The notes under the pieces: model-generated
Seen by the model: only the letters and a program-made list of their open reading frames with translations
What the model was told of the DNA's origin: nothing
The model's database searches: none
Shown: in pieces, positions 6,557-38,848 of the stretch
Numbering within the stretch: position 1 is the stretch's first letter
Layout of the letters: the number at the start of each line of letters is the position of its first letter
Translations under genes and position numbers: made by a program
Source of the DNA: an uncultured delta proteobacterium
GTDB taxonomy: Bacteria > Myxococcota > UBA727 > VGSZ01
Assembly: GCA_963775425.1 (NCBI GenBank)
Contig: CAVZJB010000012.1
Span: 288,001 to 352,000 of the forward strand
DNA: 64,000 nt
Direction of reading: 5' to 3'

Positions 6557-8542
6557 ATGGCGAGACCCGGCGCAGACTGGCTGGACCCCCGAGCGACGTT
6601 GCGGCCGCGCCCGCGTTCGTTGCGCACGCGGGTGAAGCTCGTGGTCACCGCCGCGCTGCTGTTCGCCGCGGCGTTCGCGGTGTGGCGGGCGACGGGGCAG
6701 GTGGCGGCGTCGGCGGAGCCGCTGTCGTTCTTCTTCGAGGAGGAGAAGCCCGACGCCACCGGCATCCACTTCGTCCACGAGATGGGCTCGTTTGCGCCGT
6801 TCTTCGACAACGTGAAGCCCTTCATGCGCGCGGTGTCCGCGTCTGCGTGCACCGCCGACGTCGACGGCGACGGCGACCTCGACCTCTACTTCACCACCGC
6901 CGGCGACGGCGCGAAGAACGCGCTGTTTTTCAACGACGGCGGGTGGCGCTTTCACCGCGCGGAGGGCGCGGCGTGGGCGGCGCTCGACGGAGACAACGGG
7001 CGCGACGGGTTCTCGTCGGACTGCGTGTTCGCCGACGTCGACAACGACGGCTTCCCTGACCTCTTCGTCGGCGCGGTGGCCCAGCGCCCGCACCTGTTCC
7101 ACAACGACGCCGGCCACGGCTTCACCGACGTGAGCGCCGCCGCGGGCGTCCCCGACTACATGAACGGCTTCGCGGTCAGCTTCTTCGACTTTGACGCCGA
7201 CGGCGACCTCGACCTCCTCCTGTCGAGCTACTTCGGCGAGCGCTACCTCGCCGAGGACATCCCGTCGCGCCCGCGCATTCATTCGTGGAAGGTCCCCGAC
7301 GACGAAAACGCCGGGCGCATGATGCCAAACAACTGGGGCGACGCGACCAACGGCGGCCAGAAGCACTTCTTGTTGAACGACGGGACGGGTCACTTCACGG
7401 CGGTGGACCCGGCGGCGTACGGCTTCACCGAGACGCGGTTCACCTTCGACATCGGCACCGGCGACCTCGACGGCGACGGCTTCACCGACGTCTACTTCGC
7501 CAACGACTTCGGCCCCGACCAGCTCTACTTCAACGACCACGGCCGCGGCTTCGTCGAGGTGAAGGGCGTGTTGCCGACCGAGGTGGGGCGGGACTCCTTC
7601 AAGGGCATGGACGCGGAGATCGCCGACATCGACAACGACGGGTTGCCCGAGATCTACGTGACCAACGTGTTCCACCCGGTGCTCCCGGAGGGGAACATCC
7701 TGTGGAAGAACCTGGGTGGCCGCCGCTTCGAGAACGTGGCCGCGCCGCTCGGCGTCAAGGACGGCGGTTGGGGCTGGGGCGCCAAGCTCGTCGACATCGA
7801 CCTCGACGGCGACACCGACCTCGTCGAGACCAACGGGTACATCTCGCAGAACCCCGACAAGGCCGAGTACTGGTATCGCTTGTCGCGCCTGGTGGCGGGC
7901 GACCGGCGCTTCATCGTCGACACGCGCAAGTGGCCGCCGTTCGAGGACCTGAGCATGAGCGGGCATCAGGTGAGCCACGTCTTCGTGTGGGACGCGGCGT
8001 CGCACCGTTTCTTCAACCGCGCCGCGGACGCGGGCGTGACGCGGTCGTTCGACGGCCGCGGCGTGCTCATCGCGGACCTCGACGAGGACGGCCGCCCCGA
8101 CGTCCTGTACGTGGCGCAGGGCGCGCCGTACTTCCTCGGGCACAACGTGTTCCGCCCCACGCCTCAGACGCCGGCGCCGCCGCATTGGGTGGGCGTGATC
8201 GTGAAGGGCGACGGCGCGCACGTGAACAAGGACGGCGTCGGCGTCCGCGTGGAGGTGCGGGCGCACGACGCGCGCTCGTTGCCGCCGCTGTACCGCGAGG
8301 TGAGCGCGGGCAACGGCATGAGCGCCGAGAGCATGCCCTGGGTGCTCGCGGGTCTCGGCGCGTACGCCGGGCCCGTCGACGTCACCGTCCGCTGGACCGA
8401 CGGCACGGTGACCGCGGTGCGGGGGCTCCCGGCCGACCGCTACCACACGATCGTGTACGGCGCCGCCCGCGCCGTGGGCACGCGCCCCCCGGCGAGCGGC
8501 GCCGCAACGAGCGGCCCCACCGCGGGCGAGGGCGCGCCGTGA
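6557..8542 (+). CDS. CRTAC1/ASPIC-UnbV family FG-GAP repeat protein with N-terminal membrane anchor
   Basis: Multiple DxDxDGDxDL repeats, ANDFGPDQL, KGM, GWGWG, C-terminal ASPIC/UnbV domain (GVGVRVEV...GLG...VRWTDG). Confidence 0.9.
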   Translation: MARPGADWLDPRATLRPRPRSLRTRVKLVVTAALLFAAAFAVWRATGQVAASAEPLSFFFEEEKPDATGIHFVHEMGSFAPFFDNVKPFMRAVSASACTADVDGDGDLDLYFTTAGDGAKNALFFNDGGWRFHRAEGAAWAALDGDNGRDGFSSDCVFADVDNDGFPDLFVGAVAQRPHLFHNDAGHGFTDVSAAAGVPDYMNGFAVSFFDFDADGDLDLLLSSYFGERYLAEDIPSRPRIHSWKVPDDENAGRMMPNNWGDATNGGQKHFLLNDGTGHFTAVDPAAYGFTETRFTFDIGTGDLDGDGFTDVYFANDFGPDQLYFNDHGRGFVEVKGVLPTEVGRDSFKGMDAEIADIDNDGLPEIYVTNVFHPVLPEGNILWKNLGGRRFENVAAPLGVKDGGWGWGAKLVDIDLDGDTDLVETNGYISQNPDKAEYWYRLSRLVAGDRRFIVDTRKWPPFEDLSMSGHQVSHVFVWDAASHRFFNRAADAGVTRSFDGRGVLIADLDEDGRPDVLYVAQGAPYFLGHNVFRPTPQTPAPPHWVGVIVKGDGAHVNKDGVGVRVEVRAHDARSLPPLYREVSAGNGMSAESMPWVLAGLGAYAGPVDVTVRWTDGTVTAVRGLPADRYHTIVYGAARAVGTRPPASGAATSGPTAGEGAP

Positions 8543-9444
8543 CGGCGGCGACGCTGTTGCCCACCGACGCCGCCGTCGCGCGCGCGGCGGTTGACGCGCG
8601 CGGGTTCCTGGTGCGGCTCGTGTCGCGCGACGCGTGGATCATCCCCGGGCGGCGGGACCCGCGTTGGGCGTTCGCGGGCTTCCATGCGCTCTACGTGGTC
8701 GCGGGCCACCTGCTGTTGAGCTTCAACCGCTCGCCGCAGCAGATCGGGGTCGCGCTCCTCGCCTGCATGGGCCTCGAGATCGTCTACACCTTCGTCGCCA
8801 CGCGCATGTTCATCGTGCCCCTGTCCGGGCTCATCTCCGGGCTCGGGCTCGGCCTGTTGTTCACGGCGCCTGGGAACGCCTGGCTCATGCTCCTCGTCGC
8901 GTGGCTCACCATCACGAGCAAGTACCTCGTGACCTGGCGGGGCCACCACGTGTTCAACCCCACCAACCTCGCGCTCGTGGTGATGCTCGCGTTCTCCGGC
9001 GGCACCGTCGCCGTCGCCCCAGCCTACCAGTGGGGCGGCTTCTGGCAGGTGCTCGTCGTCGTGTTCGTCTTCGGCCTGGTGGTCGCCTGGCAGGCGAGGA
9101 AGCTCCCGCTGGTCCTCGCGTTTTGGGCCACCTACTCGCTCGGTGCGCTCCTGCGGGCGCACCTCACGCACATGCCGGCGGAGATCACGCTCTACGCGCA
9201 GATCTCGGGCGGCGCGTTCTGGCTGTTCACGTTCTTCATGATCACGGATCCGAAGACCAGCCCGCCGTCGCTGCGCGGGATGATCGGCTACGGCGTCGCC
9301 GTCGGCCTCGTCGACATCTGGTTCCAACTGCACTTTGCCGTGTTCTCTCTGTTCTATGCGCTCTTCGCCGTGTGCGCCGCGCGCGCGCTGTGGATGATCG
9401 GCTCGGACGTCCTGCGCCGGGCCCGCTCGTCGACGCCGGTGTAG
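8539..9444 (+). CDS. UnbU-like (RnfD/NqrB superfamily) integral membrane protein
   Basis: GTGA overlap with upstream stop; RDPR, SKYL...HVFNPTN, FFMITDPKTSP; hydrophobic throughout. Confidence 0.85.
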   Translation: MTAATLLPTDAAVARAAVDARGFLVRLVSRDAWIIPGRRDPRWAFAGFHALYVVAGHLLLSFNRSPQQIGVALLACMGLEIVYTFVATRMFIVPLSGLISGLGLGLLFTAPGNAWLMLLVAWLTITSKYLVTWRGHHVFNPTNLALVVMLAFSGGTVAVAPAYQWGGFWQVLVVVFVFGLVVAWQARKLPLVLAFWATYSLGALLRAHLTHMPAEITLYAQISGGAFWLFTFFMITDPKTSPPSLRGMIGYGVAVGLVDIWFQLHFAVFSLFYALFAVCAARALWMIGSDVLRRARSSTPV

Positions 9445-9502
9445 AAACCGGGCGTGACCGGTAGCCATCGGCCGCGTGCTCGGCGGTCGAGCCCAGGGAC
9501 GA

Positions 9503-10183
9503 TCATCCCGTCAGCTCGTCGAAGAAGGTGCTGGCGAAGCCGATCTCGCCGCCGGCGGTCTTGTGGTGGCGGGCGTGCCGCGCGGCGATCGAGCGCGCGC
9601 CCCGGGCGACGCCGAGGTGCCCGAGCGTGTTCAACGCGAGGTGCACGACGGGGAACACCACGACGGTGAGCGCGTGCAGGGGCACGAAGAAGGCGGCCAC
9701 GGGCATCACGCTGCCGAGGAGCAAGCCCTCCACGGGATGCATCGCGTAGGTCGAAAACGGCGACGGCGTCTTCGTCCGGTGATGCACCGCGTGCACACGG
9801 CGATAGAGCCAGGGCGTGTGCAGGAGCGCGTGGACGGCGAAGAAGTGCACCTCGTTCCACACGAGCAGCCCCACGATCTCCACCGCAACGGCGCCCGGCG
9901 ACGACACGGTCACGATGTGGGCGAGCCCCGCGCGCGTCGCTGCGAGCAGGATGGGGGTCCACGCGGAGAAGGCGAGGATCGCCGGCACCGCGCACAGGGC
10001 TTCGCGCCGCCGCTGACCCGGGGCGCGCGCGCCGACGCGGACCGCGAGCCCCGCGCGCTCGAGGCCGCCGGCGACGGCCTCGCCGGCGAAGGCGAAGCTC
10101 GCGTAGATCGCCGCGAAGGCCGCGGCGGTGGCGGCGAAGGCGAGCGGGAGCGGAACGGTGTGGATGAGGTCGTCGAGGGGCAT
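9503..10183 (-). CDS. Sterol desaturase / fatty acid hydroxylase superfamily enzyme
   Basis: His boxes HALLH, HAVHH, HARHH; PSPFSTYAMHPVE; NTLGHLG. Confidence 0.85.
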   Translation of the reverse strand: MPLDDLIHTVPLPLAFAATAAAFAAIYASFAFAGEAVAGGLERAGLAVRVGARAPGQRRREALCAVPAILAFSAWTPILLAATRAGLAHIVTVSSPGAVAVEIVGLLVWNEVHFFAVHALLHTPWLYRRVHAVHHRTKTPSPFSTYAMHPVEGLLLGSVMPVAAFFVPLHALTVVVFPVVHLALNTLGHLGVARGARSIAARHARHHKTAGGEIGFASTFFDELTG

Positions 10184-10245
10184 GCGCCCGGTGATGTGCA
10201 GCACGCGTGCCCGCCCTGCGCACACCCGGGCCACACGACAACGGT

Positions 10246-10261
10246 TGGCACGGCGCTTCCA
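10246..10261 (+). promoter_or_regulatory. Possible sigma-54 promoter for the ketosynthase operon
   Basis: TGGCACG-GCGC-TTCCA versus consensus TGGCACG-N4-TTGCW: perfect -24 element, one mismatch at the conserved -12 G. Confidence 0.35.
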
Positions 10262-10273
10262 ATCGAGTCCGGC

Positions 10274-10366
10274 ATGCACACGAAGAAGACCCTGGTCGCC
10301 GTCGTCGTCGGCGCCGCCTGTTTCGCGAAGCTCGCCCTCGGCCTGCTCCTGCTTGTGACGTCGTGA
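10274..10366 (+). CDS. Putative 30-aa hydrophobic peptide
   Basis: MHTKKTLVAVVVGAACFAKLALGLLLLVTS; host-like high-GC3 codons; directly upstream of the ketosynthase. Confidence 0.4.
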   Translation: MHTKKTLVAVVVGAACFAKLALGLLLLVTS

Positions 10367-10388
10367 ACGAAGACCTATGGAGGCAGCG

Positions 10389-12401
10389 ATGAAGCCCGTG
10401 TACATCACCTCGGTCGGCGCCTTTCTTCCCAACGACCCGGTCGACAACGACGGCATGGAGCGGGTGCTCGGCCTCGTCGGCGGCAAGCCGAGCCGCTTGA
10501 AGGACCGCATCCTGAGGCAGAACGGGATCAAGTCGCGCCACTACGCCCTCGACCAGGACGGGCGCACCACGCACCTCAACGAAGAGCTCGCCGCCCACGC
10601 CGTCGTCGACGCGCTGACGCGCCGCGGCCTGCGCGCGGAGCACCTCGACATGCTCGCGTGCGGCACCACCATCGGCGACGTGCCGTTGCCCGGCTTCGCC
10701 TCGATGGTCCATGGGCGCCTCGCCACCGTCGCGCCGGAGACGCCGGCGATGGAGGTGGTGTCGACCATGGGCGTGTGCTGCGCGGGCATGGCCGCGTTCC
10801 TCGCCGCCTTCCGCGGCGTGCAGTCCGGCCAGCGCCGCCTCGCCGCGGCCACGGGCAGCGAGCTCGTGTCCCGCAACCTCAAGGGCAGCAAGTTCGAGGC
10901 GGAGGCCACGCTCGAGGACCATCGAGACATCGGCTACCGCGCGTTCGACGCGGACTTCTTGCGCTTCATGCTCTCCGACGGCGCCGGCGCCGTGCTCATG
11001 GAGAACAAGCCCGCGCCGGACGGTCTGTCGTTGCGCGTGGACTGGGTGGAGATGGTGTCGCACGCGCACGAGCGCCCCGTGTGCATGTACACGGGCATGC
11101 TCGACAAGGACCGGCCCAAGGCGGGCAACACCTGGCTCGACTTCCCCACCATCGGCGCCGCAGACAAGACCGGCATGATGAAGATCCGGCAGGACACCAA
11201 GCTCCTCCCCGAGATCGTGAAGCTCGGCGTCGAGGAGTACCTGCGGCTCGTAAAGAAGGAGCGCATCCGCACCGAGGAGATCAACCACGTGCTGTGCCAC
11301 TACAGCTCGCACTTCTTCAAGGGCGAGATCGTGAAGCTCCTCGAGCAGGCCGGCGTGATGATCCCCGAGGAGAAGTGGTTCACCAACCTCTACACGCGCG
11401 GCAACACCGGCGCCGCCTCCATCTACATCATGCTCGAGGAGGCGATGCGCACGGGGCGCTTCAACAAGGGCGACACGGTGCTGTTGATGGTGCCGGAGTC
11501 GGGGCGGTTCATGGTGAGCTTCGCCCGCCTGACGGTGGTCGACGCGGCGTCGGCCACCACCTCCCCCGCGCCCGACACGGACGCCGGCGGCGGCGTCGAG
11601 GGGGACGCGCGCGAGCGGCGGTGGAGCGCGGCCGCGGGCCAGGCGGTGTCCGCGGCGCGGTCGGCGGCGGCGCCGCGCGGCGACGTCGCAGACGCCATCG
11701 CGCGCTCGCCGCTGCCCGACGCGGCTCGCAGCGAAGACGCCGTGGAGCGGTACCTCGGGGTGGAGCTCGCGCTCGTGTGGGCGGACTTCGAGCGCATGCT
11801 GCGCGCGGTGCCGGTGGTGCGCCGGCTCGAGGATGGGGAGGCCACGGTCGAGGACTACCAGCGGCTCCTCGTGAACCTGCGGCAGCAGGTGATGGAGGGC
11901 GCTCGCTGGATCGCGCGAGCGGCGTCCAACGTGTCCATCGAGCTGTTCCCGCTGCGCTCGATGTTCATCGGCCACGCCGGAGACGAGCACAAGGACTACC
12001 AGATGCTCGAGCGCGACTACGTCGCCGTCGGCGGCGCCCTCGAGGACATCGTGTCGCAGCCGAAGAACATCGGCAGCGAGGCGCTGTCGGCGTTCATGTT
12101 CCACCAGGCGAGTCAGCCGGACCCGCTCGACCTCATCGGCGCGATGTTCGTCATCGAGGGGCTCGGCATGAAGAAGGCCGCGCGTTGGGCGGAGCTCCTT
12201 CACGAGCACCTCGGGCTCACGGCGAAGCAGACGAGCTTCCTTGGCTATCACGGCAAGAACGACGACGAACACTTCGGCAAGCTGCGCGAGGTGATCGGCT
12301 CCGGCTATCTCGACGACAAGACCGCGAAGCGCGTGGTGAAGACGGCCAAGACGGTCGCGCGCCTGTACGCGCTGCAGCTCGAGGAGATCGACCATGTCTG
12401 A
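10389..12401 (+). CDS. StlD/DarB-family beta-ketosynthase fused to a C-terminal heme-oxygenase-like diiron (iron-containing redox enzyme) domain
   Basis: GGAGG RBS; VYIT...FLPNDPVDN...NGIKSRHYA, GVCCAG, FLRFMLSDGAGA, CHYSS, EKWFTNL..GNTGAAS, VPESGRF. After a low-complexity linker: QQVMEG, HAGDEHKD, FVIEG, YHGKNDDEH. Confidence 0.88.
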   Translation: MKPVYITSVGAFLPNDPVDNDGMERVLGLVGGKPSRLKDRILRQNGIKSRHYALDQDGRTTHLNEELAAHAVVDALTRRGLRAEHLDMLACGTTIGDVPLPGFASMVHGRLATVAPETPAMEVVSTMGVCCAGMAAFLAAFRGVQSGQRRLAAATGSELVSRNLKGSKFEAEATLEDHRDIGYRAFDADFLRFMLSDGAGAVLMENKPAPDGLSLRVDWVEMVSHAHERPVCMYTGMLDKDRPKAGNTWLDFPTIGAADKTGMMKIRQDTKLLPEIVKLGVEEYLRLVKKERIRTEEINHVLCHYSSHFFKGEIVKLLEQAGVMIPEEKWFTNLYTRGNTGAASIYIMLEEAMRTGRFNKGDTVLLMVPESGRFMVSFARLTVVDAASATTSPAPDTDAGGGVEGDARERRWSAAAGQAVSAARSAAAPRGDVADAIARSPLPDAARSEDAVERYLGVELALVWADFERMLRAVPVVRRLEDGEATVEDYQRLLVNLRQQVMEGARWIARAASNVSIELFPLRSMFIGHAGDEHKDYQMLERDYVAVGGALEDIVSQPKNIGSEALSAFMFHQASQPDPLDLIGAMFVIEGLGMKKAARWAELLHEHLGLTAKQTSFLGYHGKNDDEHFGKLREVIGSGYLDDKTAKRVVKTAKTVARLYALQLEEIDHV

Positions 12402-13473
12402 CGCCGCGCGCGGTGCCTCGACGTGGCGCGGCGACGTGTCCCCCGGCGCCGCCGACCCGGCGTGGGCGTCGCCAAAGAGCGCGTCCCCACGGGGCGACGA
12501 GGGGCGCGCGGGCTCGTCCCCCGCCGAGCGTGCGCCGGGCCCCCCGGATGCCCGCGGCGCGGAGGGCGGGGCCCCGCACCACGTCTCGTCGAGAGCCGCG
12601 GCGACGGAGCGAGACCGGGGAAACCCCCGCATCGCCGACGTGCTCCTGTGGGACCCGACGCAGCCGGTGGCGCCCGAGGCGCGCGTGCTCGCGGCGCGGG
12701 ACCTCACGCGCTGGTCGCACCGCGCGCTCCTGCCGCTCGCCCGCGTGGCGTCGCTCGTGTGCGTCGCGCTCATCCGCGCCTTCAAGCGCGTGCTGCCGTT
12801 TCAGTTCTCGTGGCACACGGCCATCGACGTCCTGTGCGTGTGGTTCATGCGTCGCTTCATGAGCGCCGACGCCGCCGAGCTCCTGGCGCGCCACTTCGTC
12901 GTCGAGACCAACCTGCTCGCGTTCATCGCGAGGAACTGCCGGCCGGAGGAGGGCGCGCACGGCGCGGCCGTCCCCGTGCCCACGCTGCGGCCGCTCACGC
13001 TCGCCGAGCTCGGCAAGGACAACGCCGTCATCGCCCACGACCTCGCCGTCTACAACCTCGTCATCGACGTCGGCCAGGCCGGCGCATCGCTCGAGAAGCG
13101 CGAGCACCTCGACTTCTCCATGATCCACGTGCCGCCGCTCGACGGCGAGCGCGCCCGCAAGCGCGTCCTCGAGCTCGACATCGAGACCTCGCTCTACCTG
13201 ATGAACATCCCGTTTTGCCTGTTTTGCACGGAGAGCGAGTACGAGCGCGCCGTGAACAGCTTCCAGCTCGACGAGTCCGTGTGCGCCATGCTCGCGGGCC
13301 TCACCGGCGACGCCACGTTCCGCACGTGGACCCCGGTGAAGTTCCCGTCGTGGATCTCGGTGCGCCGCGAGGTGCCCAAGGAGCTCTTCTTTCACGCGTG
13401 CGTCTGCGAGTACGCCCACACGCACCTCGAGCGCATCGCGGCCCGAAGAGACGCCGAGCGCGCCGATGCGTGA
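12394..13473 (+). CDS. Conserved hypothetical protein (DUF6999-like)
   Basis: Overlaps upstream stop; RHFVVETNLLAFI, HDLAVYN, DIETSL, AVNSFQLDE recall the DUF6999 proteins found next to DarB-like synthases (recollection only). Low-complexity N-terminus. Confidence 0.6.
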   Translation: MSDAARGASTWRGDVSPGAADPAWASPKSASPRGDEGRAGSSPAERAPGPPDARGAEGGAPHHVSSRAAATERDRGNPRIADVLLWDPTQPVAPEARVLAARDLTRWSHRALLPLARVASLVCVALIRAFKRVLPFQFSWHTAIDVLCVWFMRRFMSADAAELLARHFVVETNLLAFIARNCRPEEGAHGAAVPVPTLRPLTLAELGKDNAVIAHDLAVYNLVIDVGQAGASLEKREHLDFSMIHVPPLDGERARKRVLELDIETSLYLMNIPFCLFCTESEYERAVNSFQLDESVCAMLAGLTGDATFRTWTPVKFPSWISVRREVPKELFFHACVCEYAHTHLERIAARRDAERADA

Positions 13474-14383
13474 GCTCACCCTCGCCCTCGCCACCACCGC
13501 GCTCACGCTCCTCACCGGGCTCGGCGTGGTCCTCGGCTACCACCGGCTGCTCACGCACCGCGCGGCGTGCTTTCACCCCGTCGTCGAAAAGGCGCTCGTG
13601 TTGTTCGGTCTGGCCACGGGGACGCCGGTGCAGTGGGTGGGCAACCACCGCTTTCACCACGCGCACGTCGACACCGCGCGCGATCCGCACTCGCCCAAGC
13701 ACCGCGGCTTCTGGATCGCGCACTGCGGTTGGTACCTCGGGCTCACGGAGAAGACGCCGGCGTCGACGGCGCTGTGCGTGCTCTACGCGCTCGCGGGCCC
13801 GCTGCGCCCGCTCTTCGACGCCTTCTGGCGCCCGCGCACGAACCAGGAGCACGTCGGCCTCGCCAACGACGTCGCCGCCGACCGCTTCTACGCGTGGCTG
13901 TCGCGACCGGGGCCGTACGCGTTGGTGCTCTTGTCGTGGGTGGCGCTGCTGTGGACCGTGTTCGTCGTCGTCTGGGGCGTGGCCGGCGCCGGGGCGCTCA
14001 TCGTGGTGCACTACCTCGCGTACGCGCTCGGCGACGGCATCAACTCGCTCGGCCACATGTGGGGCGAAAAGAGCGACGCCCAGGGCGCCCACGCCGGCGC
14101 GCGCGAGGGCGGAGCCGAGGCCGGCGAGAGCCGCGACAGCGCCCTGCTCGCGTTGTTGACGCTCGGGGACGGCTGGCACCGCGCGCACCACCGCTTCCCC
14201 GGCTCCATCCGCTGCGGGCTCGCGCCCGGCCAGCTCGACGTGGCGTACCTCGTGGCCAAGGCGTTCGAGGCCGTGGGGCTCGCCACCGGCCTGCGCGTCC
14301 CCGACGGCGCGGCCCCCGCGCCCGGCGCGTGCGCGCCGGCGCCGCCGGGGGGACACCACCCGCCCCGCGAGGCGACCCCGTGA
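13466..14383 (+). CDS. Membrane fatty-acid desaturase (delta9/DesC-like)
   Basis: GYHRLLTH, WVGNHRFHHAHVD..DPHSP, INSLGH, GDGWHRAHH. Confidence 0.9.
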   Translation: MRELTLALATTALTLLTGLGVVLGYHRLLTHRAACFHPVVEKALVLFGLATGTPVQWVGNHRFHHAHVDTARDPHSPKHRGFWIAHCGWYLGLTEKTPASTALCVLYALAGPLRPLFDAFWRPRTNQEHVGLANDVAADRFYAWLSRPGPYALVLLSWVALLWTVFVVVWGVAGAGALIVVHYLAYALGDGINSLGHMWGEKSDAQGAHAGAREGGAEAGESRDSALLALLTLGDGWHRAHHRFPGSIRCGLAPGQLDVAYLVAKAFEAVGLATGLRVPDGAAPAPGACAPAPPGGHHPPREATP

Positions 14384-15111
14384 GCGCGCCGGTCCCCGCG
14401 CTCGAGCGGGCGCTCGCGGCCACGCTCAAGCGAAACCGCGAGCGCCCCGTCGTGGACTTCGCGGCGTTCGACGCCGCGTGCATCCCGAACGAAGAGCGGG
14501 AGGCGCTCTCGTTCTTCGTCGTCAACCTCGCGTTCATCGAGCGCACGAGCACGCCCAACCTCGCCGCGCTCTCCCGCTGCGCGCCCGTCGCCGCCGTGCG
14601 CGATTGCTTCGCCGCGCAGATCCACGACGAGGAGGCCCACGGCGACATGCTCGTGTCCTGGCTCGCCGCCGCCGGCGTCGCCGGCGCCGCCCACCCGCTC
14701 ACGCGCGCCGGCATCAAGGCGGCGGAACTGGTGCAGCACCACGCCTGGCTCGGCATCAAGGGCGCGGAGATCTTGACGGAGCACTACGCCGCCGCCCTCA
14801 TCGACGCGCTCTTGCCGCGGCTCGACGAGCCCTGCCTGCGCCTGGTGCTCGAGGAGATCGCGAAGGATGAGCGGCGCCACAAGGTCATCGCCGTCGAGAG
14901 CGTGCGCGCGTTGCGCGAAGCCGGCGCACACCGCGGTCTGGTCGCGCGCCTCTTCGGTCCGGTCGTCGAGCGCGGGACGGTCCTCTACTTCCGCCGCGTG
15001 TTCGGCGGCTTCCTCGAGCGCCCGTGCGCGGCGCTCGCGTTGCCGCACCGGGAGATCCTCGAGCGCGCGCTCGACGAGGTCCACGACGCCCTGCGCGTCG
15101 CCGGCGCCTGA
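14380..15111 (+). CDS. Ferritin-like diiron protein
   Basis: GTGA overlap; E...DEEAH...E...DERRH (two ExxH motifs). Confidence 0.75.
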   Translation: MSAPVPALERALAATLKRNRERPVVDFAAFDAACIPNEEREALSFFVVNLAFIERTSTPNLAALSRCAPVAAVRDCFAAQIHDEEAHGDMLVSWLAAAGVAGAAHPLTRAGIKAAELVQHHAWLGIKGAEILTEHYAAALIDALLPRLDEPCLRLVLEEIAKDERRHKVIAVESVRALREAGAHRGLVARLFGPVVERGTVLYFRRVFGGFLERPCAALALPHREILERALDEVHDALRVAGA

Positions 15112-15115
15112 ACAC

Positions 15116-15427
15116 ATGCTCGAGAAGAAGCCCCACCTCCTGCTCGTGGCGTTCCTCGCCGGTCTGGTCGCGCTCAACGCGTGGCGCCTGCAGGCGTGGG
15201 GCGTCGAGGGCCTCCGCGTCTACCTGACGCACCCGATCATGCAGACCACGCTGTACGACTTCGGATGCATCCTCGCGGTGCTCTGCGTCTTCATCCACCG
15301 GGACGCCAAGCAGCACGGCCTCACCTGGTGGTGGATCCTGCCTACCTTCCCGTTCATGCCCACGCTCGGCGTGCTCCTGTACTTCGTGGTCCGCCGCCGT
15401 GCGCTCCTCAAGCGACGCGCGACGTAG
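15116..15427 (+). CDS. Small membrane protein (DUF2834-like)
   Basis: 103 aa with about three TM segments; DFGCIL..FIHRDAKQHGLTWWW...LYFVVR. Confidence 0.65.
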   Translation: MLEKKPHLLLVAFLAGLVALNAWRLQAWGVEGLRVYLTHPIMQTTLYDFGCILAVLCVFIHRDAKQHGLTWWWILPTFPFMPTLGVLLYFVVRRRALLKRRAT

Positions 15428-16014: not shown

Positions 16015-16026
16015 CCCGAGGCCTTC

Positions 16027-16605: not shown

Positions 16606-16707
16606 AGGGCCCGTCGACGAAGGCCCTCGCTGAAGGCCGGGACGTCGCGCGCCGGCGCCGGCCGGCCCGCGACATAGGGCGCCGGCTCGCCCGGTGCGTC
16701 GGGGCGG

Positions 16708-17880: not shown

Positions 17881-17889
17881 GCCTCGAGT

Positions 17890-19588: not shown

Positions 19589-19591
19589 GCG

Positions 19592-23543: not shown

Positions 23544-23608
23544 GGCCGCGAGCATAGCGCCGGCGTGCGCGCCGCGGCCGGGTCCGTTAGGACTAGCGGG
23601 AGGCGCGC

Positions 23609-24442: not shown

Positions 24443-24445
24443 CGC

Positions 24446-24910: not shown

Positions 24911-24971
24911 GGCGCGGAGGATGCCGCGAACCCGGGCGCGCGGCTATCCGGATCGCGCACCCTCGGCGAGC

Positions 24972-26144: not shown

Positions 26145-26160
26145 ATGCTGCGTACGGCGT

Positions 26161-26988: not shown

Positions 26989-26992
26989 GGCG

Positions 26993-30049: not shown

Positions 30050-30059
30050 CGAGGTGACC

Positions 30060-31664
30060 CTACACGACGAAATTCCTGTCGTCGCCGGTGACGAGCACCT
30101 CGTCCCAGTCATCGCGCACGTGCAGCGACGCGGCCTTGATGTCCCCGGCGCGCTGGCCGCGGGCGACGCAGGCACGCTCGTATTTTCGCAGCGCGTCGAC
30201 GACGCCGACGACGTCGACGGCGCCGAGCTGGCCGAGCTCCCGCGCGTAGCGGTACGGGTGGCCGACGCGCAGCGCGTCCTCGACGGCGCGCGCGAGGGCG
30301 GCGCGAGCGGCGGGCGGAGGGAGCGGAGGGAGCGGCCCAGGTCGATCGGGGGCGGGATCGCACTCCAGGTAGAGCCGGTAGTGGGGCGGACTGCCCTCCG
30401 GCCTGCGCGGCGCGAGCATGGCGAAGCGCGCGCGGCAGGGGCCGAGGACGCGCGCGACGGCGGCGTCGACGACGCCGCCGACGAACGCCGCAGACAGCTT
30501 CTCGCCCACGAGGTCGCTCGTCATGGCGCGGCCGATGAAGCGCACGCGCGGCGTGGCCTGGGCGCGGCCGGCGACGACGACGCGGTCGCCGAGCCGGTAG
30601 CGCACGAGGCCGGCGCTCGTGGTGAGCAGCACCTCGTAGCTGCGGCCGTCCTCGATCTCGTGGGCGAAGCAGGCGCGGCCGTCGTCGTCGAGGAACTCGA
30701 GGACGTGAGAGCGCACTGCGAGGACGGGCGCGTCGCTGCCGCCGTCGGCGGGCCACGGGATGGATACGGCCCCCTCGACGGCGAGGAGCCCCTTGCCCTG
30801 GATGGGGACGCCGGGCAGGCGCGCGCGCACGTCGTCGACGAACAGGGCCGACGACGCGTCGGTCCACATGGAGACGAGCGACAGCCGCGGCCACAGCGCC
30901 CGCAGCGATCGCGGTCGCCGCCCGCCGTCGCGCCCGGTCGCGACACCGGTGGGCGCGCCCTGGAGCTCCTCGACGGCGTCGAGCAGCAGCGTGAGGAAGG
31001 TGGGGCTCCACACCGAGATGAGCGTGAGGTCGCGGCGCTCGGCCAACAGCCGCGCCGTCTCACGGCGGCACGCGTCGACGTCTCCTGTGAGGGCGACGTC
31101 GTCGGGGACGGCGAGCACGCGCGCGAGCAGCGGCCGCAGGAAGCCGGGGAAGTACGCGCTGTCCGGCGCGCCGATGGGGACGCCGCCGGCGGTCTCGCGC
31201 GGCCGATCGCCGAGCGGCGACACCGACCAATAGGCGCAGCCGCCGGCGACGCCGGGCGTGCGCGCGTAGAGCGAGAACAGCCACGGTTGCAACGCGCGGT
31301 TCATCTCCTCGAGGAACGGGCGCGTCATCGGCAAGAGCTTCTGCGCGCCCGACGATCCTCCCGAGCGCTCGAAGCGAATCACGGGCGAGCGCGTGAGCGC
31401 GGTGCGCGCGCCGCCGGCGACGCGCTCGACGTCGAGATCCTCGTAGCGCGTGAGCGGCAGGGCCTGCAGCTCGTCGAGCGTGCGCACGCCGTCGAGCGCG
31501 CGCACCTCGCGGCGGACGCGCGCGAACGCCGCCTCCTGCGCCCGGCGCGGATCGCGCAGCGCGCGCGCGAACGCCGCTGCCGCCGGCGCCATGGCCGCCG
31601 CGAGCGGGCCGGTGATCGCCTGCGCGGGGACGAGGCCGCGACCCATGGCGCGCGTCCGGCTCAC
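30060..31664 (-). CDS. GH3 family acyl-acid amido synthetase
   Basis: FERSGGSSGAQKLLPMT, LISVWSPTF, KGLLAVEG, YEVLLTTSAGLVRYRLGD, DLVGEKL. GTG overlaps upstream stop; alternative ATG at 31646. Confidence 0.88.
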   Translation of the reverse strand: MSRTRAMGRGLVPAQAITGPLAAAMAPAAAAFARALRDPRRAQEAAFARVRREVRALDGVRTLDELQALPLTRYEDLDVERVAGGARTALTRSPVIRFERSGGSSGAQKLLPMTRPFLEEMNRALQPWLFSLYARTPGVAGGCAYWSVSPLGDRPRETAGGVPIGAPDSAYFPGFLRPLLARVLAVPDDVALTGDVDACRRETARLLAERRDLTLISVWSPTFLTLLLDAVEELQGAPTGVATGRDGGRRPRSLRALWPRLSLVSMWTDASSALFVDDVRARLPGVPIQGKGLLAVEGAVSIPWPADGGSDAPVLAVRSHVLEFLDDDGRACFAHEIEDGRSYEVLLTTSAGLVRYRLGDRVVVAGRAQATPRVRFIGRAMTSDLVGEKLSAAFVGGVVDAAVARVLGPCRARFAMLAPRRPEGSPPHYRLYLECDPAPDRPGPLPPLPPPAARAALARAVEDALRVGHPYRYARELGQLGAVDVVGVVDALRKYERACVARGQRAGDIKAASLHVRDDWDEVLVTGDDRNFVV

Positions 31665-32440
31665 GACGAGGGGGAGGCGTCGCGGGGGAGCGCGCCGCGC
31701 TCGGCGAGCGGGGCGCGCCGGCCGCCCAGCGCGCGCCGCAGTTGCTTCCAGAAGAAGCGCGGGCCGAGCGCGAAGTCGATCTCGGCGAAGCACACGAGCT
31801 CGTCGCCGTGGCGCCAGCCGGGGTTCTTGTCCGCGAAGAACGCGACGTCGGGCTCCGCGAGCGTCTCTTTGTCGAGCGGCGCCACGGCGTGCTTCACGCG
31901 GTCGTGCGGCACGCAGTAGCGCAGCACCTCGGCGCCCGCGTCGTAGTCGTCGCCCCACCACGCGCGCGCGACGCGGTCGCGCAGCGCGCGCAGCTCCGGC
32001 GCCGGCGTCGCGCCTCGGCGAGGAAACGCCGAGGGGAAGTTGTTGGTGAGGATGAGGTACGTCTTGTAGCCCTTGGACAGGAGCAGCCAGTACAGCGGCG
32101 TGAGGGGGCTTCGCAGCTTGTGGCGCACGGAGAACGCGAGGAAGCCGCGGTGGAGCGCCTTGGTGCCCCAGCAGTCGGGGTGGATGACGGTGTCTCCGGA
32201 GAACAGGATGTCCACCGGCTTTCCCGAGAGCGTCTCGCGCGCGACGCGGATGGTGGAGAAGCCCTGCACCGCGCGGTGCTCGTCGACGAGCAAGATGACG
32301 TGCTGCTTTTCGGCGAGGTCGGCGGCGAAGCGCGCGGGATCGACGTTGTCGTAGCAGAGCTGCATGAGCGCGAGCATGCGCGCGCGCGTGTGGTCGTCGA
32401 GCGCGGCGCGGGCCACGATCTTATGGCGCAGCCGGCTCAC
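31661..32440 (-). CDS. GNAT-like protein coupled to the GH3 gene
   Basis: GTGA overlap; FAADLAEKQHVILL, QGFST, FSGDTVIHPDCWG (GNAT motif A-like), YWLLLSKGYKTY. Confidence 0.7.
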   Translation of the reverse strand: MSRLRHKIVARAALDDHTRARMLALMQLCYDNVDPARFAADLAEKQHVILLVDEHRAVQGFSTIRVARETLSGKPVDILFSGDTVIHPDCWGTKALHRGFLAFSVRHKLRSPLTPLYWLLLSKGYKTYLILTNNFPSAFPRRGATPAPELRALRDRVARAWWGDDYDAGAEVLRYCVPHDRVKHAVAPLDKETLAEPDVAFFADKNPGWRHGDELVCFAEIDFALGPRFFWKQLRRALGGRRAPLAERGALPRDASPSS

Positions 32441-33069
32441 GTGAGCACCTCGGCGGCGTAGCGCGCCACGAACGCGCCCACCGCGCCCGTGACAGCGGCG
32501 TTGCACAGCGCGGTGGCGCGGTTGATGGCGGCGAAGCGCGGGTCGCCCTCGGGGGCGAACCACACACCGTGCGCGCCGGTGGTGCGGCCGCCGACGGCGC
32601 CGAAGAAGCGCCAGGCGTGGTGGATCTCGACGGCGAGCGAGCCGACGACGGCGGCGCACAGCCCGAGCGCCCAGCGGTCGATGCCCGGCGACGCCACGGC
32701 CTCGGCGACATCGTCGGCACGCCACAGGAGCGCGCCGCCGACGAGGGCGATGGAGAGCGCGCAGTGGGCGATGCCGTACGGCGGGCGCCAGCTTCGCGTC
32801 ACATAGAGCATGAACATCTCGACGGCGCCGCGGAGCCACATGAAAGCGGCGAACGCGCCGAGCGCGGTCCGGAAGCAGGGCGCGACGACGTCGTCGAGGG
32901 CGAGGGCGGGGCAGACGAGGAACCAGAACCACACGGCGAAGCCGAGCCAGTACGCCTTGGGCGACGACATCGCGCCGCCCATGGCTCCGCGACCCTGGCG
33001 TCTGCGGAACATGGCCGCGAGCGCGGCGACGGCGACCGCGCCGCCGACGATGACGACGAGGGACGTCAT
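32437..33069 (-). CDS. Hypothetical integral membrane protein
   Basis: About five hydrophobic segments; stop overlaps the next start; MLYVTRSWRPPYGIAH. Confidence 0.7.
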   Translation of the reverse strand: MTSLVVIVGGAVAVAALAAMFRRRQGRGAMGGAMSSPKAYWLGFAVWFWFLVCPALALDDVVAPCFRTALGAFAAFMWLRGAVEMFMLYVTRSWRPPYGIAHCALSIALVGGALLWRADDVAEAVASPGIDRWALGLCAAVVGSLAVEIHHAWRFFGAVGGRTTGAHGVWFAPEGDPRFAAINRATALCNAAVTGAVGAFVARYAAEVLT

Positions 33070-33164
33070 CGCGCTCGACCCCCGTCAGCGCGCTCGACCC
33101 TCGTCATCGCGCGCAGCCTCGCCCTCCGCCGGAGGTCGCGCGCGCTCATTGGACAACCTCTACG

Positions 33165-33390
33165 CCGCGGTGACGGGTTGAGCGATCTTCCCGGCGCCGT
33201 CTCCCGGGCTTCGTCGGGGAGGGCCGCGCTCGCTTGCCGGTGAACGGCCCCTGTGAGACCCGCCCCCTCGACGAAGCCGGGAGCCTTGAAGCGGCTACAG
33301 GACGTTGCGCCCGACGATGTTTGCTGACGACGACGGAGCGCCTGTCAATGAGCAACCGATCAAGGCTCCCAGCCCGGGGGACGGTACCGC
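33165..33390 (+). ncRNA. IS110 bridge RNA (ends approximate)
   Basis: Two stem-enclosed loops. Guides CGCGCTC (33225-31) and CCTGTGAG (33250-57) match the target flanks; ACAGGACGT (33297-305) and CAATGAG (33346-52) match the element ends. Confidence 0.85.
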
Positions 33391-33406
33391 AACAAGGAGG
33401 TCCGTC

Positions 33407-34612
33407 GTGTCGTACTTTGCAGGTTTGGATTGGGCGGCGAACGAACACGCCGTCTGCGTCATCGACGACAAGGGCAGCGTCGTGCTCCGCCTCGTCGTCA
33501 AGCACACCGAGGAGGGTCTCACCGGCGCTGTGGCGAAGCTCCGTAGGTTCACTGAGGAAGCGCCGCTGCGCATCGCCATCGAGCGGCCGACGGGGCTCGT
33601 CGTCGACACGCTGGTCGATGCGGGATTCCACGTCGTGCCGATTCACCCGAACGTCGTGAAAGCGACGCGTCCGCGCTACTCGAGCGTTGGCGCCAAGAGC
33701 GACCCCGGCGACAGCTACCTGCTGGCAGACTTGCTGCGCACCGATGGGCATCGCTTCAAGACGCTCACGCCGCTCGGAGACGAGACGAAGGCGCTGCGTG
33801 CCCTCGTTCGCGCACGCGGCGACCTCGTTGCCGAGCGGGTTGCACTGGCGAACCAGCTGCGCGCGCTCGTTGAGAGCTTCTGGGCCGGCGCCGCGTGCAT
33901 CTTCCGCGACATCGACTCGCCCATCGCGCTGGCGTTCCTCGGGAGGTACCCGACACCGCAGCACGCCGAGCGCGTCGGCGAGAAGCGGCTCGAAGCGTTC
34001 CTGGCGCGCAACCACTACTCCGGTCGCAGGGACGTCGCCGAGCTCCTGGGCCGCTTGCGAGGTGCGCCCAGCGGCAAGTGCGGCGAGATGGAGGCCGAGG
34101 CGAAGGGGGAAGCCGTGCAGCACCTCGTCGCGGTCCTCGACATCGTCGTCGCACGTCTCAAGAAGCTCAACGCCGCCGTCGAACACGCCGTCGAGGCGCA
34201 CCCCGACGGGCACATCGTGATGTCGTTTCCGCGCAGCGGACGCATCAACGCCGCGCAGATTCTCAGCGAGCTCGGCGACGAGCGCGCGCGCTTCGACAGC
34301 CACGAGCACCTCGAGGCCGAGGCTGGCGTGTGCCCCGTAACGTTCGCGTCCGGCAAGCACGTCGGCGTCGCGTTCCGGTGGGCGTGCAACAAGCACCTGC
34401 GCTCCGCCGTGACCCTCTGGGCCGACAACTCGCGACACAGCTCGCCATGGGCCGCCGCCCTCTACGACGCTGCCCGCGCTCGCGGCCACGACCACCCGCA
34501 TGCGACCCGCATCCTCGCTCGTGCGTGGCTCCGGGTGCTGTACGCGTGCTGGAAAGCCCGCGTCCCGTACGACCCGGCCCTTCACGGCCGCGCCGCCGCG
34601 CTCGCCGCCTGA
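33407..34612 (+). CDS. IS110 family transposase/recombinase
   Basis: AAGGAGG RBS then GTG; AGLDW, IAIE, KSDPGD (DEDD); AGVCPVTFASGK serine motif; RILARAWLRVLY. Confidence 0.95.
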   Translation: MSYFAGLDWAANEHAVCVIDDKGSVVLRLVVKHTEEGLTGAVAKLRRFTEEAPLRIAIERPTGLVVDTLVDAGFHVVPIHPNVVKATRPRYSSVGAKSDPGDSYLLADLLRTDGHRFKTLTPLGDETKALRALVRARGDLVAERVALANQLRALVESFWAGAACIFRDIDSPIALAFLGRYPTPQHAERVGEKRLEAFLARNHYSGRRDVAELLGRLRGAPSGKCGEMEAEAKGEAVQHLVAVLDIVVARLKKLNAAVEHAVEAHPDGHIVMSFPRSGRINAAQILSELGDERARFDSHEHLEAEAGVCPVTFASGKHVGVAFRWACNKHLRSAVTLWADNSRHSSPWAAALYDAARARGHDHPHATRILARAWLRVLYACWKARVPYDPALHGRAAALAA

Positions 34613-34635
34613 GATGGCGTGACGCAGCGCGGTGG

Positions 34636-34641
34636 TTGACA
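34636..34641 (+). promoter_or_regulatory. -35 box in the IS110 right end that forms a promoter on circularisation
   Basis: Perfect TTGACA; across the predicted circle junction it reads TTGACA-N17-CAACCT, pointing into the bridge RNA. Confidence 0.7.
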
Positions 34642-34650
34642 CAGGACGTC

Positions 34651-37596
<2,946 letters not shown>

Positions 37597-37705
37597 GCGC
37601 CGTCGAGCCTACCCGCTGGCGCCCCGCGAGGGCAGCGCCCGGCCGGCGCCCGGCCCTCGCAGCCGACGGTCTTGGTCGCGGCGCGCCGCTGTAGAGTCCG
37701 GCTGC

Positions 37706-38848
37706 ATGCGCTTCGACGAAACCCTCGCCGCCGTGCGCCGGGCGACGCCGGCGGACAACCAGCTCCTCGTCGATCTCATGGCCGAGGTGCCGATGGAGGG
37801 CTCCCTCGTCTTGTCCACGCGCCGCGATCCGGACTTCTTCGCCCTGTACGCGATGCAGCGCGGCAGCGCCGACGCCTTCTGCTACGACGACGGCGCCTTC
37901 GCCGGCATGGGCGCCATCCTCGTGCGCGACGGCTTCCTCGACGGGAGGCCGGCCCCGGTGGGCTACCTCGGCGATCTGCGCACCCGCGGCATGGGCCGCG
38001 CCCGCCGCGCCTTCCCCGGCGTGTTCGCCCACTTCTTCACGGACACCGTCGCGCGCACCGGCTGCGAGCACTTCCTCACCGGGGTGCTGGCGTCGAACGC
38101 GGTGGCGCTGCAGTCGCTGGTGCGCCGCAAGAGGCGGCGCGCGGAGCAGCCGTACTACCACCTGCTCAAGCGCTACCAGATGGCCTCGGTGCAGCTCGTC
38201 CTGCCCCCGCGCCGGCGCCTGCGCCCGCGCGCGGATGAGGGCGGGGGCGTGCGCGTCGACGTCGCCGGCGCGGCGGACGTCGGGGCGCTCGCGTCGTTCC
38301 TCGCGGAAGATCACCGCACGCGGCCGTTCGGCTACCGCTTCGACGCCGGCGAGCTCGAGCACCGCCTCGCAGCCTGGCCGGGCTTCTCCCTCGACGACAC
38401 CTTCGTCGCGCGCGACGACGCCGGCCGCGTCGTCGGCTGCTGCACCGCGTGGGACGCCGCGCCCGTGAAGCGCTACCGCGTGATGCGCTACGCCGGCGAC
38501 ATGCGGCTGATTCGCGCGGGGCTCGCCGTGGCCTCCAGGGTCGTCGGCTGCCCCGCGCTCCCCGCGCCCGGCGGCGACTTCCGCTACCTGTACCTGACGA
38601 ACCTCAGCGTCCTCGACGACAACCCCGCGGTGATGCGCGCGCTCCTGCGCAAGGTCTACGTCCACGCTTGGGACAAGCGCGTCCACTTCTTCTCCTTCCC
38701 GCTGTACGAGGACGACCCCTACGCCGCCGCGCTCGACGGCTTCGTCGTGCGCAAGCTGCCGTTTCACCTCTACGCGGTCACGGCGGCGTCGCGCGCCCGC
38801 ACCGACTGGCCTGCCGGCCGCCCCGGCTTCGAGATGGCGCTCGCGTAG
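37706..38848 (+). CDS. Putative tandem GNAT-fold acyltransferase
   Basis: VRRATPADN, RDPDFF, VGYLGDLR, second GNAT-like half (VVGCCTAWD, YLTNL); divergent from the UnbU-UnbV fusion. Confidence 0.65.
   Translation: MRFDETLAAVRRATPADNQLLVDLMAEVPMEGSLVLSTRRDPDFFALYAMQRGSADAFCYDDGAFAGMGAILVRDGFLDGRPAPVGYLGDLRTRGMGRARRAFPGVFAHFFTDTVARTGCEHFLTGVLASNAVALQSLVRRKRRRAEQPYYHLLKRYQMASVQLVLPPRRRLRPRADEGGGVRVDVAGAADVGALASFLAEDHRTRPFGYRFDAGELEHRLAAWPGFSLDDTFVARDDAGRVVGCCTAWDAAPVKRYRVMRYAGDMRLIRAGLAVASRVVGCPALPAPGGDFRYLYLTNLSVLDDNPAVMRALLRKVYVHAWDKRVHFFSFPLYEDDPYAAALDGFVVRKLPFHLYAVTAASRARTDWPAGRPGFEMALA

Follow-up and report, generated by a model that had tools for sequence, protein, structure and literature searches.

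The window analysed here is a 64,000-nucleotide stretch of DNA from an uncultured delta proteobacterium (contig CAVZJB010000012.1), and it contains two groups of genes, arm A (positions 6557-15427) and arm B (30060-38848). Arm A is a lineage-specific elaboration of a compact cassette found in many phyla. The core of this cassette is a fusion of a StlD/DarB-type ketosynthase (KS) to a heme oxygenase-like dimetal oxidase (HDO) domain, followed by a gene of the family DUF6999. Arm B is a separate conserved cluster of the window genome's phylum, which is probably Myxococcota, and represents a second, uncharacterised cluster whose defining members are a GH3 enzyme, a GNAT-fold protein of an unnamed family and a Rieske oxygenase. 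A first-pass annotation, made from the sequence alone, had joined the two arms into one biosynthetic system. They are very probably two independent conserved clusters that happen to lie about 15 kb apart. As a whole, the explanation that we find best, namely two clusters of which the arm A cassette follows DarB-type chemistry, is moderately probable. The cassette appears to be a DarB-type pathway with new partners, and it has apparently never been studied.

A compact cassette of a ketosynthase-oxidase fusion and DUF6999

As the window has a G+C content of about 72%, raw lists of open reading frames are crowded with spurious frames. Genes were called from frame plots of the G+C content at third codon positions (GC3), and the called genes were scanned with Pfam and NCBIfam. 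The neighbourhood of the core fusion gene, A4, was followed in the best 80 loci around relatives of the KS-HDO fusion, taken with 10-kb flanks and searched with every protein of the window. The distribution within the phylum was followed in a sample of 301 genomes, with presence thresholds of E ≤ 1e-60 for KS-HDO and E ≤ 1e-25 for GH3. Related genomes in these sets are not independent samples, and many are fragmented metagenome-assembled genomes (MAGs), so that the absences reported below mean "not found" rather than proven absence. Where needed, genomes are designated by G and loci by L with a number, G000 being the window's own genome.

The fusion is widespread. Among the homologues listed, all with at least 59% identity, 117 of 120 carry both the KS and the heme oxygenase-like (HO) Pfam domain, and a pattern search of species-representative genomes gave at least 599 matches, of which at least 548 encode a relative. 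The best 80 loci come from Myxococcota, Acidobacteriota, Gammaproteobacteria, Acidimicrobiia, Bacteroidota (Chitinophaga, Pedobacter, Niastella and Flagellimonas), Paenibacillus and others. A quick tree of 75 fusion proteins resolves two fully supported clades. The fusion of the window groups with those of Myxococcota MAGs, Gammaproteobacteria and Acidobacteriota, while that of Archangium falls into the other clade. In a set of 14 well-known control genomes, Caulobacter vibrioides alone matches the DarB model, below the cut-off as the fusions do, together with DUF6999, above the cut-off; judged by these matches, it probably carries the cassette.

DUF6999 lies immediately 3' of KS-HDO in 75 of the 80 loci and is the sole constant neighbour. 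Of the other five, three end in or just past the fusion gene, L039 holds a divergent DUF6999 copy, and in L049 none was found. The two genes also travel together in the phylum sample, with 21 carriers of KS-HDO, 20 of DUF6999 and 19 of both ([[19,2],[1,279]]). The three mismatching genomes consist of two contig-edge cases and one 62-residue fragment. The remaining genes of arm A are occasional members: in the 80 loci, the hydroxylase (A3) has a homologue beside KS-HDO in 19, the DUF2834-like protein (A8) 3' of DUF6999 in 11, all in clade I of the tree, the desaturase (A6) beside KS-HDO in 10, and the UnbV/UnbU-like pair (A1 and A2) occurs in two. The flanks of 10 diverse loci contain unrelated housekeeping genes, and no acyl carrier protein (ACP), DarA/aromatase or transporter was found in them.

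The composition of the proteins themselves connects the partners further. KS and HO are split into separate genes in G014, G055 and G076, and two predicted proteins from metagenomes (P0250 and P0332) hold KS, HO and DUF6999 in one chain, either as true triple fusions or as read-through calls. To judge from the sequences, such fusions are the best evidence that KS, HO and DUF6999 may act together.

Two side observations concern individual loci. The cassette loci L012, L023 and L030 stand in bins labelled as a Methanobacteriota archaeon, Heliomicrobium and Clostridia; O2-dependent enzymes are unexpected in such hosts, and binning errors or transfers may be the explanation. In L155, which belongs to G055, an MMPL/RND-type transporter and a desaturase lie directly upstream of the split KS, HO and DUF6999 genes (4159-10771). 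The transporter is a possible export partner and was not seen in the other loci.

Domain structure of the fusion protein

The KS domain of A4 aligns to StlD (PDB: 5gk0) over residues 7-388 with E-values of 1.2e-85 to 5e-85, whereas enzymes of the FabH type match it far worse, at E 1e-14 or weaker. The segments GVCCAG, CHYSSHFF and GNTGAAS correspond in this alignment to the Cys, His and Asn motifs of StlD and are invariant in 13 of 13 sequences. We take the Cys, His and Asn of these motifs to be the catalytic residues.

The HO domain scores 34.2 bits against Pfam Haem_oxygenas_2 (PF14518), above the cut-off of 28.9, and a profile built from 11 HO domains matches an HO-like fold structure (PDB: 3dde) with an E-value of 3.3e-7. 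H533, E537, E594, H625, D629 and H632 are invariant in the 13 of 13 and 11 of 11 aligned sequences, and position 507 is E or D. This HxxxE...E...HxxxDxxH set resembles a 3-His/3-carboxylate dimetal site, in which the residues presumably play the ligand roles that we associate with the HDO motif. The HO domain belongs to a small subfamily (360 representatives out of 1.84 billion at E ≤ 1e-3). Its full-coverage matches are either stand-alone proteins of about 240-260 amino acids or KS fusions of about 630-640 amino acids. The matches to 5gk0 and to Haem_oxygenas_2 bear out the first-pass description of A4 as a DarB/StlD KS fused to an HO-like domain.

With known HDOs such as UndA, BesC, SznF, CADD, AetD and FlcD, A4 shares the Haem_oxygenas_2 family, the match to the HO-like fold and the invariant set of His and carboxylate residues. 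It differs from them in that its HO domain is fused to, or encoded beside, a ketosynthase, and in that it presumably acts on a lipid ring, and not on a free fatty acid or an amino acid.

DUF6999, the constant partner

The second core gene, A5, was described in the first pass as DUF6999-like, and the Pfam scan is in full agreement (PF22523, 247.5 bits against a cut-off of 27, E 1.7e-73). The protein starts with one hydrophobic helix, after which comes an all-helical domain that contains invariant His, Asp and Glu. A possible common site would comprise H95, H143/D144, D190, D221/E222, H262, E267 and H270, numbered on the trimmed protein. The AlphaFold2 (AF2) model is confident and likewise all-helical (pLDDT 89.7, pTM 0.89). 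Foldseek returned no match to this model at E ≤ 0.001 (best E 0.59), and VIA-align against 48,161 chains returned none at Z ≥ 5, the best being generic helical bundles and G-protein-coupled receptors at Z 4.0. Among PDB sequences, phmmer and profile searches gave no match, and the Atlas gave no usable one. A comparison with the HO domain by hhalign yielded a probability of 0.4%. The modelled fold is possibly new, a missing structural match being no proof of novelty. Our guess is that DUF6999 acts as a membrane-bound tailoring metalloenzyme.

Proposed chemistry of the cassette

Enzymes of the DarB/StlD type join two acyl thioesters into a dialkyl-cyclohexanedione. Given a condensing enzyme of this type, a dimetal oxidase and putative non-heme iron enzymes in one cluster, a lipid that is derived from fatty acids, cyclised and oxidised is a reasonable expectation. 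This part of the first-pass outline stands, and its ending in a GH3-formed amide is not supported. We postulate that the KS would condense a beta-ketoacyl and an enoyl thioester from primary metabolism to a 2,5-dialkyl-cyclohexane-1,3-dione. The attached HDO would then use O2 to oxidise the ring or a carboxylated precursor. This step could be an aromatisation, an oxidative decarboxylation or a hydroxylation, and it would stand in for DarA. DUF6999 and the membrane iron enzymes would finally tailor the product in the membrane. From the homology of the KS, a product of the cyclohexanedione or resorcinol kind is plausible, although we rate it slightly below an even chance. More speculative, and rather doubtful in its entirety, is the most far-reaching form of the proposal. 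According to it, hundreds of aerobic species, spread over at least six phyla, would use the cassette to produce oxidised lipids with a dialkyl ring (resorcinol, quinol or hydroxy-cyclohexanedione) of an undescribed class; the HDO, as an O2-dependent substitute for DarA, would be the first in its superfamily whose substrate is a KS product bound to the same polypeptide; and DUF6999 would be a membrane metalloenzyme with a new fold that completes the pathway.

The comparison with the DarAB(C)/StlCD systems defines what is shared and what is new. The KS of A4 is homologous to StlD over its full length and keeps the active-site motifs, and its likely substrates are two fatty-acid-derived thioesters. 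In contrast to those systems, A4 stays below the curated cut-offs, a DarA-like gene was found neither adjacent to it nor in the genome, and the constant partners of the cassette are the HDO domain and DUF6999. Canonical pathways pair DarB with DarA, as described in two papers (PMC13192835, PMC13748660). Our "DarA" query was the 306-amino-acid product of the gene upstream of a canonical darB, chosen by position and carrying no family label. No homologue of this presumed DarA was found in G000 or in the Niastella, Pedobacter and Archangium genomes (G303, G304 and G305). As for a partner aromatase, there is no conserved third gene in the 80 loci, and none was found in 10 annotated loci.

Several observations weigh against this proposal. 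A4 scores 432.4 bits on the NCBIfam model for StlD/DarB (NF005293), below its cut-off of 450, and 397.3 bits on the model for DarB (NF053539), below its cut-off of 550. The canonical DarB of Chitinophaga reaches 592.6 and 619.9 bits on the two models. Two Chitinophaga genomes carry canonical DarB, above the cut-off, alongside the fusion, while Niastella, Pedobacter and Archangium carry the fusion without canonical DarB. Because A4 falls below both cut-offs and canonical DarB is a separate protein in Chitinophaga, the fusion is a sister subfamily of StlD/DarB, and its reaction may differ. G090 (98% complete) and G249 (96%) have the KS, yet no HO domain was found in either, so that the HDO is not indispensable everywhere; in G090 (L159), the KS gene is followed directly by DUF6999. 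In G182, DUF6999 lies 3.7 Mb away from KS-HDO. Furthermore, the formation of a cyclohexanedione by the KS is a prediction from homology, and the replacement of DarA by the HDO is a step that we infer with a "DarA" query identified by its position only.

The shortfall against both cut-offs and the existence of a separate paralogue beside canonical DarB in the two Chitinophaga genomes are also what one would expect if the core were real and its chemistry not of the DarB kind. The KS might then catalyse another condensation or acyl transfer, leading to a head-to-head pyrone or a beta-keto acid. The HDO might act on a fatty-acid-derived acid in the manner of UndA, by cleavage or decarboxylation, and yield an olefin, a ketone or a hydrocarbon-like lipid, or it might desaturate its substrate to an alkyne. 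The cassette needs no aromatase, which favours this alternative as well. Characterised HDOs include the C-C-cleaving decarboxylase UndA, according to a mini-review (PMC13108848), and an HDO acetylenase is known from another paper (PMC13185094). Against it stand the end-to-end alignment of the KS with StlD at about E 1e-85, far from the FabH level, the 397 bits that the DarB model still assigns, and the 10 loci examined, in which the thioesterase, ACP and ligase usual for such routes are not conserved nearby. We regard this as a serious alternative, albeit an unlikely one.

A further alternative holds that the cassette is no small-molecule pathway, and that it serves a bulk membrane lipid or a protein-bound acyl modification, with the KS-like domain as an acyl-binding module. 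The housekeeping-like context, the lack of a conserved transporter or regulator in the 10 diverse loci and the membrane-anchored partners (DUF6999, desaturase, hydroxylase and DUF2834) would suit such a role. All 13 aligned sequences keep the catalytic Cys, His and Asn motifs unchanged, which is at odds with an acyl-binding module. The distribution is patchy, with KS-HDO in 21 of 301 genomes and in one of 10 in the same family, and this fits an accessory product better than core membrane upkeep. This alternative as a whole is, in our estimation, very unlikely.

If DarB-type chemistry with the HDO as oxidase is true, the cassette would provide a second, aromatase-free route to dialkyl-ring lipids. 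It would add a new reaction type and a new architecture, the KS fusion, to the fast-growing HDO superfamily, and it would give a function, and possibly a new fold, to DUF6999. Since the cassette comprises two to five genes and cultivable genera carry it (Chitinophaga, Pedobacter, Niastella, Paenibacillus, Archangium and Flagellimonas), the question is directly testable at the bench. Caulobacter vibrioides would serve as a model organism for such work if its cassette is confirmed.

Literature searches, which extended to sources other than subscription journals and supplements, found no work on a KS-HDO fusion or on DUF6999. Searches on StlD and cyclohexanediones gave canonical DarAB work only. 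The words "ketosynthase", "fused", "fusion" and "thiolase" have no occurrence in the 2026 HDO mini-review (PMC13108848). Within these searches, no characterised cluster of the arm A kind came to light, in line with the first-pass statement that none of this combination is known.

The two arms are very probably separate clusters

The independence of the arms is evident from their distribution. GH3, B2, B3, B5 and the Rieske gene each matched none of the 80 KS-HDO loci, and B4 matched two (L001 and L002), in both cases on UnbV/UnbU genes of the arm A type. KS-HDO was found in none of 15 arm B loci, of which three belong to the same family and 12 were drawn from the phylum around GH3. Among the 301 genomes, KS-HDO (21 genomes) and GH3 (90 genomes) share five, compared to 6.3 expected ([[5,16],[85,195]], odds ratio 0.72). 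Clustering of arm A with arm B elsewhere was thus seen in neither set of loci, and the first-pass argument that a shared UnbU/UnbV content ties the arms into one GH3-amide pathway has the distribution against it.

Close relatives display either arm whole without the other. In G001, G007 and G009, all of the same family, arm B is contiguous in the order B5, then B4-B3-B2-GH3-Rieske, and no KS-HDO was found. In G003, G012 and G017, which belong to the same family or order, arm A stands without neighbours from arm B, and the GH3 matches are at the level of paralogues (E 1e-13 to 6e-18). After the Rieske gene of G001 come genes for DUF3996, glutamate dehydrogenase and again DUF3996. In the window, 13.5 kb, including arm A, lie between the DUF3996 and glutamate dehydrogenase genes of this order.

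Two observations point in the opposite direction. Of the genome's three UnbV_ASPIC genes, two are in the window, within 26 kb of each other, and in G055 a GH3-like gene with 34% identity lies 3.2 kb away from the cassette. This GH3-like gene is on the opposite strand behind a two-component pair, without B2 or Rieske. Together with the lipid-type or acyl-handling enzymes encoded by both arms, these observations would speak for a single system, in which the GH3 and GNAT enzymes of arm B convert an arm A lipid to an amide and UnbU/UnbV mark the pathway; such a system is highly improbable in view of the locus counts and the chance-level co-occurrence, the relatives carrying one whole arm, the roughly 14.6 kb of unrelated genes between the arms (protease, short-chain dehydrogenase/reductase, glutamate dehydrogenase, Sel1 and others), their opposite strands and the mere 40% identity of A1 and B4.

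Genes of arm A

The features of both arms and of the region between them are listed in Table 1.

Table 1 Features of arm A, arm B and the region between them in the window.
Feature	Position	Strand	Description
A1	6557-8542	+	661 aa; FG-GAP beta-propeller with C-terminal UnbV_ASPIC; one N-terminal membrane anchor
A2	8539-9444	+	301 aa; polytopic RnfD/NqrB-like (UnbU-like) membrane protein
A3	9503-10183	-	About 226 aa from ATG at 10183; membrane enzyme of the FA_hydroxylase/sterol-desaturase family; divergent from A4
A4	10377-12401	+	StlD/DarB-type KS (residues 7-388), low-complexity linker and HDO domain (about 444-674); core gene
A5	12394-13473	+	DUF6999 (PF22523); second core gene
A6	13466-14383	+	Membrane fatty-acid desaturase; Pfam FA_desaturase E 2.5e-16; optional cassette member
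A7	14380-15111	+	Soluble protein of about 243 aa; two ExxH motifs (HDEEAH, ERRH)
A8	15116-15427	+	103 aa; small three-helix membrane protein, DUF2834-like
Rieske	22374-23555	-	Rieske non-heme iron oxygenase; Pfam Rieske E 1.3e-21 and VanA_C
Signalling block, 6.5 kb	23609-30175		BrkB, macro domain, histidine kinase-response regulator (HK-RR), CheR, 1060-aa hybrid histidine kinase (Pfam)
B1	30060-31646	-	GH3 family, predicted adenylating enzyme; 528 aa from internal ATG
B2	31661-32416	-	GNAT-fold protein of an unnamed family; 251 aa; start codon uncertain
B3	32437-33069	-	Small membrane protein; 210 aa; hydrophobic segments; no Pfam family
IS110-family element	~33143-34650 (left end approximate, right end provisional)	+	Transposase 33305-34612+
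B4	34651-37596	-	UnbU-UnbV fusion; 981 aa; polytopic part (about 1-330) and FG-GAP/UnbV_ASPIC propeller
B5	37706-38848	+	380 aa; unnamed family; diverges from B4

The genes of arm A form a genuine cluster with translational coupling. Stop and start codons overlap in the form GTGA or ATGnnTGA at A1/A2 (GTGA), A4/A5, A5/A6 and A6/A7, and A7 and A8 are separated by 4 nt. The gene list of the first pass, with its mostly overlapping start and stop codons, is largely retained. The departure is A3, which has a minus-strand GC3 signal in the frame plot and stands outside the coupled run. We also considered arm A as a mobile island and rejected this, as the Pfam scans gave no integrase or tRNA at its ends and the composition is flat.

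Two families of His-box membrane enzymes are present. A3 matches Pfam FA_hydroxylase (E 1.5e-19) and carries the boxes HFFAVH, HAVHH and HARHH. A6 carries HRLLTH, HRFHH and HRAHH, and with its family match it substantiates the desaturase that had been noticed in this arm.

A1 contains a hydrophobic segment at residues 24-47 and matches FG-GAP_3 (E 6e-34) and UnbV_ASPIC (E 4.6e-10, 39.7 bits against a cut-off of 23.4). Its orthologues upstream of KS-HDO in the two loci mentioned above, L001 and L002, both belong to Myxococcota MAGs. That of L001 is 59% identical; that of L002 is partial, located at the start of a contig, and 51% identical over the last 106 residues. A2 scores 35 bits on Pfam NQR2_RnfD_RnfE, whose cut-off is 27.7.

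The assignments at the 3' end of arm A are more qualified. A7 had been called a ferritin-like diiron protein. Its two ExxH motifs agree with this, and the ferritin-clan matches are faint (Phenol_Hydrox E 0.2, Rubrerythrin E 0.33). A search of PDB sequences gave no match, and homologues occur in two of the 80 loci (L002 and L004). We regard A7 as a possible ferritin-like dimetal protein on the strength of these motifs. A8, noted earlier as DUF2834-like, scores 21.3 bits and falls just short of the Pfam cut-off of 22.9.

Genes of arm B and the region between the arms

B1 contains all three GH3 Pfam domains, GH3, GH3_M and GH3_C, with scores of 61.3, 48.0 and 28.2 bits, the cut-off being 23.6. 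The protein has the motifs SGGSS and YRLGD, and a third motif of the YxxSE form was not found in it. We presume that SGGSS and YRLGD have the meaning that they have in other GH3 enzymes, and B1 is predicted from its sequence to adenylate. In its three domains it resembles the GH3 amido synthetases such as plant JAR1. Unlike the plant-type enzymes, it belongs to a bacterial branch in which no studied member was found, and its partners are a GNAT-fold protein of an unnamed family and, often, a Rieske oxygenase. Literature searches found no papers on GH3 with Myxococcus, and for Caulobacter with resorcinol none on topic by title or abstract. The chemistry of arm B as a whole is a prediction from its genes.

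B2 has the GNAT fold according to its AF2 model (pLDDT 91.0), for which Foldseek gave 39 PDB matches at E ≤ 0.001. The top structural matches are all GNAT enzymes, namely AAC(2'), Eis and GCN5-type acetyltransferases. No Pfam family covers the protein, weak GNAT matches appear in just two of 33 family members, and a B2 profile gave no match among PDB sequences. All 647 clusters of homologues are unnamed or "hypothetical". B2 adjoins GH3 in all three same-family loci and in nine of the 12 further loci of the phylum. The model thereby agrees with the first-pass view of B2 as a GNAT-like protein.

The same name had been given to B5, with less success. B5 has no Pfam match, and its PDB profile matches are all below threshold, 16 of 18 being N-myristoyltransferases (E 0.17-0.83). 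With B2, the hhalign probability is 12%. Judged by these sub-threshold matches to N-myristoyltransferases and GNAT proteins, B5 is possibly a double-GNAT acyltransferase. It lies within 10 kb of GH3 in three of three same-family and seven of 12 phylum loci. B3 is kept in all three relatives and in three of the 12 phylum loci, and B4 orthologues with 56-61% identity head arm B in the relatives. The fused UnbU-UnbV protein, the membrane protein and the GH3 enzyme of the first pass are accordingly all present, as Pfam matches and hydrophobic segments indicate.

The Rieske gene had been described as lying between the arms. This is its position in the window, and it belongs to arm B, having been displaced from GH3 in the window genome. 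In all three same-family relatives it stands directly beside GH3 with a gap of less than 100 bp, and in six of the 12 further phylum loci it lies within 3 kb of GH3. The signalling block that separates the two genes here was gained by the window genome, or else the locus was rearranged.

The insertion element between B4 and B3 matches Pfam DEDD_Tnp_IS110 and NCBIfam transpos_IS110 (182.7 bits). Four more copies with 99-100% identity, one of them truncated, are present in the same genome, and these near-identical copies make recent activity of the element probable. The element may have a polar effect on B3-B2-GH3. In L105, 57 bp separate the tblastn matches of B3 and B4.

UnbU/UnbV-like pairs

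UnbV and UnbU had been invoked as the link between the arms. The UnbV side of this assignment holds: B4 scores 45.5 bits on UnbV_ASPIC against a cut-off of 23.4, and the domain follows FG-GAP repeats as in A1. The UnbU side is weaker, as A2 is closer to RnfD-like proteins than to UnbU. Its nearest Atlas clusters are RnfD-like (0.96), the "enediyne UnbU" cluster occupies rank 27 (0.92) behind 26 RnfD-like ones, and its nearest relatives are generic RnfD-like proteins of Acidobacteriota and Binatota. NCBIfam gave no match to a UnbU-type protein besides weak RnfD.

Between the arms, A2 is 33% identical to the N-terminal 270 residues of B4, and the UnbV-like proteins A1 and B4 are 40% identical. 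The latter value rules out a recent duplication of the UnbV genes. Each UnbV-like protein has closer orthologues in its own cluster elsewhere. That the pair occurs in arm A of two of 80 loci, and heads arm B in fused form, suggests one envelope unit recruited by unrelated clusters. As these pairs attach to unrelated clusters, they are unusable for linking loci into one pathway.

With the enediyne UnbV/UnbU, the pairs share the UnbV_ASPIC domain after FG-GAP repeats (A1 and B4) and the polytopic RnfD-like part (A2 and the N-terminus of B4). They differ from the enediyne cassette in that the window has no polyketide synthase (PKS), in that the pair stands on two non-PKS clusters, and in its fusion in arm B. 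The description of the pairs as PKS-less agrees with the Pfam scan, which covered the genes called in the 64-kb window and gave no PKS domain among them. Elsewhere in the genome, the third UnbV_ASPIC gene and a further UnbU-like gene were located at G000:C2:54960-55145 and G000:C16:31486-32142.

Additional features of the window and its genome

Arm B is followed by a gene for a 1329-amino-acid DUF3857/transglutaminase-like protein (38954-42943), and downstream of it lie an RND efflux pump and an outer-membrane factor (42983-48683). The window genome measures 8.3 Mb, and its order also holds a family (f6) with genomes of 0.3-3.4 Mb, whose completeness is 59-100% and mostly at least 85%, a striking size range within one order.

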